NCBI GenBank assembly: GCA_003154195.1
Contig: PMCS01000029.1
Span: forward strand, 368,960 to 429,721
Reading direction: 5' to 3'
Length of the DNA stretch: 60,762 nucleotides
From: Candidatus Omnitrophota bacterium
GTDB lineage: Bacteria > Omnitrophota > Gorgyraeia > Duberdicusellales > 4484-171
Shown here one piece after another: positions 48,001 to 51,000 of this stretch (its first letter is position 1; each line of letters opens with the position of its first letter). The position numbers are program-made.

Positions 48001-51000
48001 CATTAAGAGAGGAGAAACAGCGGCGATGGATAAGCTGGAACAGATAAAAAGGCTGACGCAGAGATGATAAAAAACGGTTAGGGTAACGGTAAAGATGCCG
48101 GTATAAAAACTTGGTTAGGGCAAGGGTAACGATGCCAGTATGGATTAGGGTCAAGGTAACGGCTCTAAAAATCTTCCTGTCATTTTAAATTGAACATTGG
48201 CCATTTATCAATGATCATTGAAAAGATTTATTATTTTTCTCTTTTTCCATTTTAAAATGATAATTGATCAATGCCAAATTTAAAATTATATTTCAATCAT
48301 TGCAGAGGCCCAGCCCTTACCTTTACCCAAACCGGCTTCCTAACCTTGGCCCTAACCCAGTTGTTAAAGTATATGCGTAAAATAAATAAAATTATAGCTA
48401 TGGTAATATTAAGCGGCGCGCTGTTTTCCGCTTTTACTTTCGCTCTACAAATAAAGGATAGGTTTGGCGTCGGTACTAAGCTGACTTATAAGGTATATTT
48501 CAATGGTATCGCAAGCGGCCACCTGGTTTGGGAATATTTAGGCTGCGAAAAAATCGCCGGGCATAATACCGAAATTATCGCGATGAATTCTGATGCCAAT
48601 ATCGCGGTAATCATTGATTTGAAGGGTAATGATAAGGTTTTTCTCGATAGCGGTACGCTATTGCCGGTTAAGGTAGAACGGGATATCATCGTATTCGGGA
48701 AAAAAGAGGTTATCCAGGAATTATATGACCAGAAAAGGGGCGAAGTTAAAATAATTAAGAACGGCAAGGAAACTATTATCAAACAGGAACCGCCCATCCA
48801 TAATATTTTAGCTTTGCTTTATTTTTTCCCCAAAAATACCCCTTTAAAAAAAGGTGAAGAAATGACGTTTAATCTTCCCACCCAGAAGGTTAAGATAAAA
48901 ATGCATGAGGAAAGAGAAATCGATACAGGAAAAGAAAAGCGAAAAACTTACCTGTTGATCGGCAGAGGGGCTAAACGTTTTAATATGTGGTTGGACGTAA
49001 AAGATAATTTACCGGCGCGAATAGAATTTATTCTGCCGGTGGGTAAAATTACCGTAATAAGGCAATACCCAGATTAAAAAAATGCGGTAACGCATTTTTT
49101 TAATCTATCACCAAAAGTGAATTGCTTCCGCCGAATGGGTCGTTTTCTACTAAATTATTGTGCGGGTCGACAAACCAATCGTTGTCCCCGGAAACGAATT
49201 TATAGCGGTACCGGCCTTTTTCGAGGGCCAGGTTTATGCTCCAAAGATTACCGGCGATTTTGTTAAGTTTAAAGCGAGGCTCCTTCTGCCAATTGTTAAA
49301 GTCTCCCGCCACATAGACTTCGTTAAAGTCCGCTCCTTTTAAGAATAAAGGGGTCCAGCTGCCTTGCCGGTTGGCAATTGTTGTTATTTCCCCGGCGAGC
49401 GAATTAAAATCTTGCGCCCCGCGGGATAACGGATTATATTCAAAGATATTTTTACCTACCGATGCCGCTTCGCGTAAATACGTATTCAGCCTTATGCCGC
49501 TTTCCAGTAACTGGCTGCCGAGTTGTTCTCTTACTTTTTGCATAAATTGTACGGCAAAGCGGGAACGCCGGTCTATTTGGGTAAGCAAATAGAAAGGAAC
49601 GGGCGAAGCGCCGTTAAAATCTTTAAGCATGATCAAGATATTTTTGAGGATTTCGACGCCGCGCAGGCTGAAATCGCATAAATTTATGGGAATAAGCGCA
49701 TACTGGCTTGCCGATAAAGCGTTGAGGGTGATCAATCCCAGATTAGGCGCGCAATCAATGATTACGTAATCAAATTGGCGGCAATAACTTTGTAAAAAGG
49801 CGGATAATATTTTTAATCGATCCTGGCGGCCGGCGATTTTATGTTCCAACGCCGCCAGACCGATGCTTGACGGTATAAAAAAGAAATTTTCCGAAACGTA
49901 AACGTGCGCTTGCGCCAAAGACAGGTTATCGCCTTCCGGCGCGGCTGATTCTAAGATGTCGGTTATGGTCAGGCGATTTTCTTTACGCAGATGAAACGTG
50001 GCATGAGCTTGGGGGTCAAGGTCGATAAGCAAGATTTTGGCGCCGGATCTAGCGAGCGCCGCGGATAAGTTTACCGCCGTTATTGTTTTACCGCAACCGC
50101 CTTTTTGATTAACAACCGATATGACTTTCATTCCGCCAGCCTCCTTCCTTTTTATTTGAACCGCAGAAATCCGCCGAATAAATTCGACGAATTGTCTGAC
50201 CGTAAGGCTCGCCTTGCGGCGAAGCTGTGGGCAGACATGCGGGGCAAATAATCCCGCCGCAGTTTGGCGGGGTCATTTAGGTGAAGTCGCCGACGAAGTC
50301 GGCGGTAATTCACTTACCCTATAATAGCCGATGAATATCGATAATAAATCAATTATAATATTTTTTTGGAAAGATTCAACTATCTTTATTTTTTACTGCG
50401 TAAAAAATAAAGATTATTCCGCCCAAAAAATACGGGTAACGTATTTTTCGGGCGGCGGATGGGAAAACCAAGAAGTATAAAGTATGGCGGAAAAACCGTA
50501 AGCTTTCGTAAGACTAATCTGGACGAGCTTTTATCATTTTTTGTTCCGGCTCGTCCAGATTAGGGATGACTTCATTTTTTACCAGAACAATGTCTTTGAT
50601 AAAAATAATATTCTTTTTATCCTGCAATTGGGGATGAAAATAGATGGTTATTTGCTTTACGCGGTAAAGGTTTACCTTTGGTTCTACCGCGTCTTTGAAT
50701 TTCAGGGCGGCCGTCAGGTATTTGCCGCTGCCGTTTATTTGTTTAGTGAGAGGGTTTAAGGCGTTGGAAAAAAAATTAGCATCCCGGGCCAGGGCAGAAA
50801 CTTTAAAAGATATGCCGGGATTTTTCAGGTAAAGAAGCAAAGAATTATTCTGGAGATTTATTTGCTTTTGGAAATTAATGGTAAGAGCTATTTTTTCTTT
50901 TTGCGGAAGAGAGAAGAGCAGCTGTTTGGCCGAAGGCATAATCGACCGGCCGTCTTCAAGGATTAAGGCCAGGCGGCAATTTTTGTCGTAAATCAACGAT

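Follow-up and report, generated by a model that had tools for sequence, protein, structure and literature searches.

A ParA-type ATPase with a fused glycogen-binding-type domain, and its membrane partner, as a candidate system for placing stored glycogen in Omnitrophota

Main finding

The window analysed here, a 60,762-nucleotide stretch of an Omnitrophota genome, encodes a ParA/Soj-type ATPase that ends in an AMPK-beta-type CBM48 domain, and directly upstream of it a single-pass membrane protein with an N-terminal helix that a complex model places on the ATPase dimer (Table 1). The fusion likely helps to place stored glycogen in the cell. Our preferred reading, which we put at close to an even chance, is a two-part housekeeping system: the ATPase would itself hold on to glycogen, with the partner as a landmark, and the glycogen store would thereby be placed or shared out.

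In Escherichia coli, phase separation is described as drawing glycogen to the old pole, and the glycogen as shifting the nucleoid and the division site (PMC11042326). A dedicated placing machine would thus explain how reserves are shared between the daughters of slow growers. The ParA-CBM family is in print solely as a predicted immune system, and this locus would allow the immune and positioning readings to be told apart by means of two genes, a single peptide and a few point changes. It may also offer a tool for addressing glycogen.

Table 1 Features of the locus and its surroundings (positions in the window).
Feature	Position	Strand	Basis or remark
ParA-CBM48 fusion gene, 343 aa	49100..50131	-	one open frame, Pfam, AF2 model, Foldseek
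ParA/Soj-type ATPase domain, aa 1-254	49370..50131	-	motif alignment and Foldseek
AMPK-beta-type CBM48, aa 258-342	49106..49360	-	Pfam and contact alignment to AMPK beta1
Spacer between fusion and partner, 382 bp	50132..50513	-	terminator-like hairpin 50455-50419, promoter-like site 50379-50352
Partner gene, type A, 246 aa, upstream of fusion	50514..51254	-	single-pass membrane protein
Partner jelly-roll domain, aa 94-232	50559..50975	-	CBM/galactose-binding-like fold, best Z 8.8-8.1
Partner transmembrane helix, ~aa 48-66	51057..51113	-	preceded by basic residues; 19-residue hydropathy 2.82
Partner N-terminal helix, aa 8-23	51186..51233	-	predicted docking in ParA dimer cleft; motif comparison
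Context: phosphoglucomutase, DUF4912, two GH57 genes, DUF2934	36633..44200	+	
GH57, branching-enzyme type	40052-41647	+	
Second GH57	42223-43803	+	

The fusion protein and its two domains

The initial annotation described a second ParA of 343 aa with a C-terminal AMPK-beta-type domain, and this description holds. The frame, preceded by the ribosome site GGAGG, matches AAA_31 over aa 1-166 (E 7e-44) and AMPK1_CBM (PF16561) over aa 270-340 (E 3e-10, over the cut-off), and its AF2 model has two domains with a mean pLDDT of 92.7. The top Foldseek matches were the ParA/Soj structures 8ray, 2bek and 8jmj (E 1e-23 to 1e-20), with an rmsd of 1.6-2.5 Å and a TM of 0.85-0.92 depending on the target; no NCBIfam family scored over its cut-off. 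An assembly artefact or chance fusion was rejected on the finding that 119 of the 120 homologues listed have both domains, nearly all of them, as was first claimed. The ParA of a chromosomal ParABS system was rejected since there is no ParB among the neighbours and the ordinary parA-parB pair of the genome sits elsewhere on the contig (C29:153042), and a MinD-type ATPase since the C-terminus is a beta-sandwich CBM and not an amphipathic membrane helix. RNA-library contigs cover the fusion in all four runs, which reflects contig coverage alone and is neither a measure of transcription nor a basis for ranking genes.

The ATPase motifs of this copy are the Walker A lysines K10 and K15, D37-x-D39-x-Q41, the family residue His43, D126, R189, R214 and R220. 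Residues were counted in 86 diverse members, with three of 89 loci omitted for lack of the anchor motif. K10, K15, D37, D39, Q41 and D126 are found in all 86, hence the ParA/Soj signature is present, and the Walker A, D-x-D-x-Q and Walker B motifs are intact as annotated. The further claim that the basic DNA-binding positions of Soj are kept stands in part. Non-specific DNA binding by Bacillus subtilis Soj is attributed to R189 and R218 (PMC3778016); the first is retained here and in 72/86 members, whereas the second is Tyr218 in this copy and Lys or Arg in 58/86. Position 220 is Lys or Arg in 83/86. A putative basic DNA face is thus supported at the level of the family.

The domain on this ATPase is the sole AMPK1_CBM of the genome. 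The sugar contacts of AMPK beta1 given in PMC2642990 are W100, K126, W133, L146 and T148. The first three are identical here (W281, K311 and W319), with F333 at L146 and G335 at T148, and among the diverse members W281 is found in 86/86, W319 in 85/86 and Lys or Arg at 311 in 79/86. By its sequence, the domain is an AMPK-beta-type CBM48 with both sugar-stacking tryptophans, and glycogen binding is predicted. In 20 genomes the fused CBM averaged 41.6% identity, compared with 48.2% in stand-alone CBMs and 48.4% in the ParA domain. The sugar contacts are fixed, and the fused CBM diverges somewhat faster than its stand-alone counterparts.

A partner gene and a predicted docking helix

The annotation took the fusion to be self-contained, with no separate adaptor. 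This is contradicted by a co-oriented partner gene at 79 of 89 loci (47/50 labelled Omnitrophota and 32/39 others), and the partner in the window is predicted to bind the ATP dimer. There is no adjacent partner at two Omnitrophota loci and seven others. The type A partner has a short N-terminal tail, one transmembrane helix and a C-terminal jelly-roll domain that is likely periplasmic; in other classes and phyla the partner is a degenerate ParA (type B) with a related N-terminal helix.

The type A protein matches no Pfam family, and a single-sequence search found no homologue besides itself, such that homology among type A partners rests on profile matches (E 3e-5 to 9e-8). The profile cannot serve to count partners because most of its matches, which fall in 173/201 phylum genomes, are paralogous jelly-roll proteins without such a helix at the N-terminus. 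The outer domain is highly variable, with a mean column identity of 22%. Its best fold match (Z 8.8, rmsd 3.3, 122 aligned residues) is not clearly above background; CBM30/galactose-binding folds lead at 0.84-0.86, one relative has a weak CBM30 match, and the fold search named no family.

The spacer between the two genes is unusually long compared with relatives (-4 to 134 bp), and it contains pieces of genome-wide repeats. RNA-library contigs stop within it at 50329 and 50306, a weak hint.

A complex model of the partner with the ParA ATP dimer scored 0.61, against 0.32 for the best control. The docking mark is reached by 116/157 solved pairs and 2/215 mismatched pairs, a calibration that does not extend to the own alignments and ligands used here. 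The runs share at least 52% of contacts, with a partner pLDDT of 49-53, and place partner aa 13-23 in a cleft to which one subunit contributes aa 89-106 and the other aa 132-136 and 164-172; the interface residues named include none from the CBM. The model thus predicts that the partner's N-terminal helix sits in the cleft of the ParA dimer, and its pass may be due to a resemblance to ParA-ParB and MinD-MinE peptide complexes already solved.

The partners start with similar helices, namely YEHLAQVYLG in type A, YDALADLFLG in Phycisphaerae and KLKRGLKDISxLF in other classes, the last of which resembles the start of the genome's own ParB (KRVLGKGLDAL). With a type B matrix, 13/32 type A starts exceed the 95th background percentile. 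The helix in the window scores below background with this matrix and is a divergent copy of the motif common to both types. Interface residues do not split cleanly by partner type.

Distribution and inheritance

The CBM was found in 172 of 201 Omnitrophota genomes and the fusion in ~154 (~77%), mostly as a single copy, when counted by hand at a profile E <= 5e-64 together with a CBM match. All 40 fetched loci that passed this score are one-frame fusions, in agreement with the original claim that the architecture is kept across the phylum. A search for related loci filled with ordinary ParA, so the wider range was sampled by a motif scan over 2/64 parts of the collection, in which 47 of 80 flanked matches were fusions. 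These include records from Phycisphaerae, Myxococcota, Gammaproteobacteria, Gemmatimonadales and Auribacter, and a distribution limited to Omnitrophota was rejected on this basis. Several Planctomycetia-labelled records group with Omnitrophota sequences and were excluded as proof of range. In Phycisphaerae (the class, by label, of genome G201) the family occurs in 57/81 genomes.

A quick tree of 59 fusions, built from top-scoring hits chosen by hand with one locus (L141) omitted and 14 groups represented by one row, required 25 label changes for 26 families. This is the minimum possible, against a mean of 44.5 after shuffling. One cross-class copy was seen (G014). In a ParA-domain tree of 109 rows the fusions form one branch (support 91), a clade apart from the genome's own Soj, together with five rows that lack a detected CBM, at least two of which lie near a contig end. 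Family members without a CBM that have a type B partner are L185, L184 and L174. Inheritance follows host families, and the spread is patchy only between phyla.

Gene neighbourhood and the link to glycogen metabolism

The genome encodes glgA, glgC, glgP and malQ in addition to the two GH57 genes, which lie 5.3 and 7.5 kb from the fusion. Glycogen enzymes, four different ones, occur within ~5 kb at 10 of 50 Omnitrophota loci; the rough chance figure for such proximity is ~3%, with kin that are not independent. Around the 39 non-Omnitrophota loci no such enzyme turned up (135/148 ORFs scanned), and a conserved glycogen operon was rejected. Surroundings in other classes consist of core genes, with proA-nadD neighbours at 13/20 loci and rsmH at 14/20.

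Within Omnitrophota, the reported co-occurrence with glycogen synthase was borne out. The CBM is absent from 11/11 genomes of the four families that lack glgA, and the one near-complete carrier without a glgA match (G169) has glgC and phosphorylase. The synthase-less families have small genomes (0.7-1.6 Mb) with many gene losses. Among genomes with glgA, ~81% have the fusion, and ~34/183 lack it above the score line, including both family relatives of this genome.

In 81 Phycisphaerae genomes, a GT3 glycogen synthase was found in 28/57 carriers and 13/24 non-carriers, GT5 in two and GlgE in three. Five carriers (G273, G256, G207, G233 and G269) have a one-frame fusion with both tryptophans retained, and a search of them found no GT5, GT3, GlgE, phosphorylase, GH13 or GH57-branching domain. 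These exceptions come from metagenome assemblies, and unknown synthases may have escaped detection: in G260 and G238, 1,850-aa frames contain a divergent GT5 domain. No novel synthase was seen beside the stand-alone CBM genes of six Phycisphaerae genomes examined. The link between fusion and glycogen thus holds in Omnitrophota and not in Phycisphaerae. Glycogen, the cargo named in the annotation, is weakened as a general cargo because the family does not track the synthase in Phycisphaerae.

Proposed mechanism and alternatives

By analogy with the ParA/MinD cycle (PMC11407121), ATP-driven dimerisation would pair two CBMs, allowing avid binding of alpha-glucan, and would form the basic DNA face. 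The ATP-bound dimer would grip glycogen and then be caught by the N-terminal helix of the partner, which would either hold the dimer and its load at a membrane site or trigger hydrolysis and release there. Such a layout would be that of ParAB or McdAB reversed, with the cargo-binding module on the ATPase and the landmark role on the partner. In its boldest form, which we consider possible while leaning somewhat against it, this would be the first active bacterial glycogen positioner. Its dimer would grip a granule by two CBM48s and ride the nucleoid, a swappable landmark (a membrane anchor here, a dead ParA elsewhere) would capture or discharge it through one shared helix, and a family in print as an immune system would instead serve to organise the cells of several phyla.

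All the evidence for housekeeping fits equally well with a switch in which glycogen or malto-oligosaccharide sets the state of the ATPase and the dimer signals reserves, via the partner, to growth, division or replication, glycogen being signal and not cargo. The CBM is of the type that makes AMPK a glycogen sensor (PMC2642990), the fusion is missing from a fifth or so of glgA genomes, and in other classes the unit lies directly upstream of mraZ-rsmH-ftsL-ftsI. However, this division-gene link is absent in the class of this genome, neither the ATPase nor the type A partner has an output domain, and carriers with no detectable glucan pathway are equally hard to explain; we regard a sensor as unlikely. 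The same five Phycisphaerae carriers, with their intact CBM, instead favour a housekeeping pair for another cargo, whose CBM would be accessory or would have a different alpha-glucan, a small sugar or a protein as its ligand. CBM-less members do retain a partner, and partner and CBM are equally constant. Yet it is the AMPK sugar contacts that are conserved, losses in Omnitrophota track glgA, four different glycogen enzymes recur nearby and synthases may be missed in metagenome assemblies, as the divergent GT5 domains illustrate, which makes this cargo decidedly unlikely.

Very improbable, in our view, is the anti-phage function proposed in the preprint discussed below, whereby the CBM senses infection-linked carbohydrates or loss of polysaccharide and ParA multimers block the invader. 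The variable outer domain of the partner, a fused CBM 5-7 points less conserved than its own ParA domain, stand-alone CBMs or GlgA, the patchiness across phyla and the cross-class copy all suit such a function. Housekeeping is favoured over immunity because the tree follows host families, the neighbours are stable core genes and the sugar site is fixed. The high, mostly single-copy occurrence in both lineages and the lack of an effector domain also argue against immunity, as does PADLOC, which gave no match for 42 of 44 proteins (fusion, partners and unnamed neighbours), the fusion and partners included; the two matches, a cNMP-patatin protein and a radical SAM protein, were at domain level. 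Most improbable of all is the one-gene positioner originally envisaged, tethering glycogen to the nucleoid with no partner at all. The ATPase does bear both a predicted glucan site and a predicted basic DNA face, some loci have no adjacent partner, and terminator- and promoter-like sites separate the two genes here; against this stand the frequency of the partner, its close or overlapping position in relatives, the passing docking model and the general requirement of ParA/MinD patterning for an activating partner (PMC11407121).

Comparison with known systems

The initial annotation found no relevant paper. In our literature searches one was relevant, a 2026 preprint (Li, Burroughs, Aravind; bioRxiv 10.64898/2026.10.19.760177) that already contains the ParA-CBM architecture; on glycogen in Omnitrophota, the literature found covers synthesis genes alone. 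In the part of the preprint available, ParA-CBM with both partner types is the immune system ConB5, called sporadic and fast-diverging, and Omnitrophota are unnamed in the main text. Its first variant, a ParA with C-terminal AMPK1_CBM and, upstream, a single-TM gene whose outer domain is CBM-like, corresponds to our locus, and its second, an inactive ParA with REase genes, to those in other classes and phyla. The family here is not sporadic, being near-core in two lineages (~154/201 and 57/81 genomes) with a tree that follows families. It further differs in its fixed sugar site and in the docking helix common to both partner types, which that part of the preprint does not mention.

The glycogen-binding domain of AMPK beta (PDB 1z0m, 4yef) resembles the one here in W100, K126 and W133, with L146 as Phe. 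It differs in T148, which is Gly here, and in its host, here a bacterial ATPase with predicted binding and not a kinase complex. Chromosomal ParA/Soj (8ray, 1wcv/2bek, 6iub/8jmj) share the fold, the deviant Walker A, D-x-D-x-Q, the R189-type DNA residue and a peptide-binding cleft near the dimer interface (PMC11229316). In contrast, the fusion has a C-terminal CBM48, a Cys in Walker A, His43, no adjacent parB and a separate clade, and it is paired with a membrane protein or a dead ParA.

The known cargos of ParA/MinD systems are DNA and protein assemblies, and the words glycogen and granule are absent from PMC11407121 and PMC10241942. McdAB and the related cargo systems in these papers resemble our locus in pairing an orphan ParA with a small dedicated partner whose N-terminal peptide docks on the ATP dimer, a contact that is modelled here. 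In McdAB, however, the partner sits on the cargo, whereas here it is the ATPase that bears the CBM48, and the partner is a membrane protein without one.

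A conserved ParA-type ATPase with a predicted glycogen-binding domain

The fusion protein encoded in the window combines an AAA_31 domain (aa 1-166) with an AMPK1_CBM domain (aa 270-340; both Pfam), the only CBM of this type in a genome whose ordinary parA-parB pair lies elsewhere on the same contig. Its AlphaFold2 model (34-row alignment) was confident over the whole length (pLDDT 92.7) and matched ParA/Soj structures, with AMPK beta subunits as the best match of the last 87 residues. Both domains were present in 119 of the 120 homologues listed, and many two-domain proteins of 340-700 aa were among the best 150 matches of a profile search against 1.84 billion representatives. 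The fusion family is real and conserved.

The residue comparison covered 86 diverse members, after 3 of the 89 loci had been left out. K10, K15, D37, D39, Q41, H43 and D126 were invariant and R189 was present in 72. The site of Soj R218 (from an excerpt of PMC3778016) was K/R in 58 members and Tyr in the window copy, and position 220 was K/R in 83. In the CBM, W281 (86/86), W319 (85/86) and K/R311 (79/86) align with W100, W133 and K126 of AMPK, whose sugar-contact residues were taken from an excerpt of PMC2642990; AMPK L146 and T148 are replaced by Phe and Gly in the window copy.

Among 201 Omnitrophota genomes, 172 carried the CBM, 183 glgA and about 154 the fusion (hand count over the score line). 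All 40 of these loci that were fetched held a one-frame fusion; both family relatives of the window genome lack it. A Walker A motif scan of 2 of the 64 parts of the collection yielded 80 flanked loci; 47 proved to be fusions, among them some from Phycisphaerae, Myxococcota, Gammaproteobacteria, Gemmatimonadales and Auribacter. In Phycisphaerae (named from a record title) the family occurred in 57 of 81 genomes. One genome, G014, has two copies (L113 and C27:19774). One belongs to the type of the genome's own class and the other is near a different class with a type A partner, which may reflect a transfer or a binning error. In other classes a stand-alone CBM48 gene of 100-140 aa directly adjoins glgA (12/12 fetched, L306-L317); the window genome has no stand-alone CBM48 gene.

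Locations of the fusion and associated features (L, fetched loci)
Feature	Location	Strand	Remarks
ParA-CBM fusion	window 49100-50131	-	343 aa
Type A partner	window 50514-51254	-	
cNMP-patatin protein	window 46211-48067	+	618 aa; cNMP-binding domain, degenerate ParA-like middle, patatin domain
obg-proB-proA-nadD	window 30608-36541	+	12.6-18.5 kb from fusion
Intergenic palindromic repeats	window 44201-44795		127 BLAST matches in genome
Intergenic palindromic repeats	window 48068-48270		113 BLAST matches in genome
Intergenic palindromic repeats	window 50132-50513		47 BLAST matches in genome
Region partly bridged by RNA-library contigs	window 44335-44592		
Frame with divergent GT5 domain	L299:2112-7670	-	Phycisphaerae; 1,852 aa, domain at 1148-1408
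Large neighbour ORF	L136:8217-11230	+	Omnitrophota; SpvB and TcdB_toxin_midN domains
Third gene of type B unit	L153:3085-3669		
Third gene of type B unit	L155:3699-4226		
Third gene of type B unit	L157:7212-7979		

A partner gene with a predicted docking helix

Clustering the neighbours of 89 loci revealed two partner types. Type A, found in the window genome's class, lies upstream of the fusion and combines a single TM helix with a jelly-roll domain. Type B, a degenerate ParA of which one member retains a CbiA match, lies downstream, and a small third gene often comes after it. Of the 50 Omnitrophota-labelled loci, 47 had a co-oriented partner of either type, as did 32 of the 39 others; one additional locus had a weak, divergently oriented match. 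This argues against the initial annotation's proposal of a one-gene positioner without an adaptor, which we now regard as very unlikely. The fusion-partner gap, -4 to 134 bp in relatives, is 382 bp in the window and holds a terminator-like site, a promoter-like site and repeat pieces.

The partners' N-terminal helix reads YEHLAQVYLG in type A, YDALADLFLG in Phycisphaerae and KLKRGLKDISxLF in other classes, the last resembling the start of the window genome's ParB. Their sequences suggest that the helices opening both types are related, with moderate likeness: when the types were cross-scored, 13/32 and 11/43 lay above the 95th percentile of the background, and the window partner's helix fell below background. 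When partner residues 1-40 were folded with two copies of the ATPase plus ATP and Mg, the complex model scored 0.61 versus 0.32 for the best control, passing a threshold that 116 of 157 solved pairs and 2 of 215 mismatched ones also pass (contact agreement at least 52%, partner pLDDT 49-53). The model predicts that the helix docks across the cleft of the dimer. Solved structures place bound ParB peptides near the ParA dimer interface (PMC11229316, excerpt), so this pass may reflect likeness to solved complexes.

Omnitrophota also have a large family of TM plus jelly-roll proteins related to the type A partner, with up to 14 matches per genome; within it, only copies adjoining the fusion matched the N-terminal helix. 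In type B units the third gene has at its end a short acidic-hydrophobic helix motif, LSxxEI/L, perhaps another docking peptide.

Association with glycogen metabolism

The window genome has glgC, glgA, glgP and malQ, and its two GH57 genes lie at distances of 5.3 and 7.5 kb from the fusion. A glycogen enzyme lay within about 5 kb at 10 of 50 Omnitrophota loci (GH57 five, GlgC three, MalQ one, phosphorylase one), as judged from the cluster representatives plus 127 of the 134 additional ORFs. In the four families that have no glgA, none of the 11 genomes carried the CBM; of five carriers without a glgA match, four were 56-84% complete and one had glgC and phosphorylase. Glycogen is the likely ligand in Omnitrophota.

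In Phycisphaerae, GT3 synthase occurred in 28 of 57 carriers versus 13 of 24 non-carriers, and in 22 of 31 carriers whose match spans the CBM. Five carriers with an intact CBM gave no match to any alpha-glucan enzyme family tried (for GH57 itself, two of the five), and two further carriers lacked glgC. Because of these exceptions, and of CBM-less family members with a type B partner, glycogen is not established as the family's reason everywhere; another ligand or cargo, which both observations favour, is nonetheless improbable. Eukaryote-type GT3 synthase occurred in 41 of 81 Phycisphaerae genomes and a GT5 domain in only 2; the L299 frame is possibly an unusual glycogen synthase.

Housekeeping or immunity

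A bioRxiv preprint (10.64898/2026.10.19.760177), in the portion available, describes ParA fused to AMPK1_CBM (ConB5) in a TM-CBM and an inactive ParA/REase variant; because the family occurs sporadically and its CBM diverges rapidly, the authors propose immunity. Beyond it, a mostly open-access literature search found neither a further paper on this family nor any experiment. Mean identity across 20 matched genomes was indeed lower for the fused CBM (41.6%) than for stand-alone CBMs (48.2%) or the ParA domain (48.4%), and in 12 genomes with glgA it was 46.3% versus 53.9% for GlgA; the type A partner's outer domain is also truly variable (22% identity). The fused CBM thus diverges faster, yet its aligned binding face is fixed, which would not be expected of an arms-race sensor. 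Moreover, a quick IQ-TREE tree of 59 fusions tracks host families, needing 25 changes for 26 family labels, the fewest that could occur (shuffled mean 44.5), with one cross-class copy. The window copy clusters with family f24, so within-class transfer is possible for it. The fusion's neighbours are core genes, proB-proA-nadD (directly upstream) and mraZ-rsmH-ftsI in other classes, and purL-purQ or an outer-membrane channel in the window genome's class; PADLOC matched none of the system's proteins among 44 scanned, a subset of neighbours. Anti-phage immunity therefore has a slim chance of being the function.

The place beside proB-proA-nadD may be the fusion's old chromosomal site. The 618-aa cNMP-patatin protein gave weak PADLOC domain matches, and a homologue also follows the fusion at locus L008.

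A candidate glycogen-placing system

By analogy with the general ParA/MinD cycle (PMC11407121, PMC10241942, excerpts), ATP dimers would bind glycogen through their two CBMs, and probably DNA too, and the membrane partner would anchor or discharge them, a step that would set the location of the glycogen store and its inheritance. In E. coli, glycogen condensates displace the nucleoid (PMC11042326, excerpt), which would be a reason to control them. We tentatively favour such a two-part system, in which the ATPase would grip glycogen and the membrane partner would anchor or discharge the ATPase dimers; that the fusion is instead a glucan-sensor switch seems unlikely, though a serious alternative.

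The architecture is already in the preprint, and our locus is a further case of a described family. New here are the predicted docking helix common to both partner types, with a passing complex model, the tests that speak against immunity, and the exceptions among Phycisphaerae to a role in glycogen placement.
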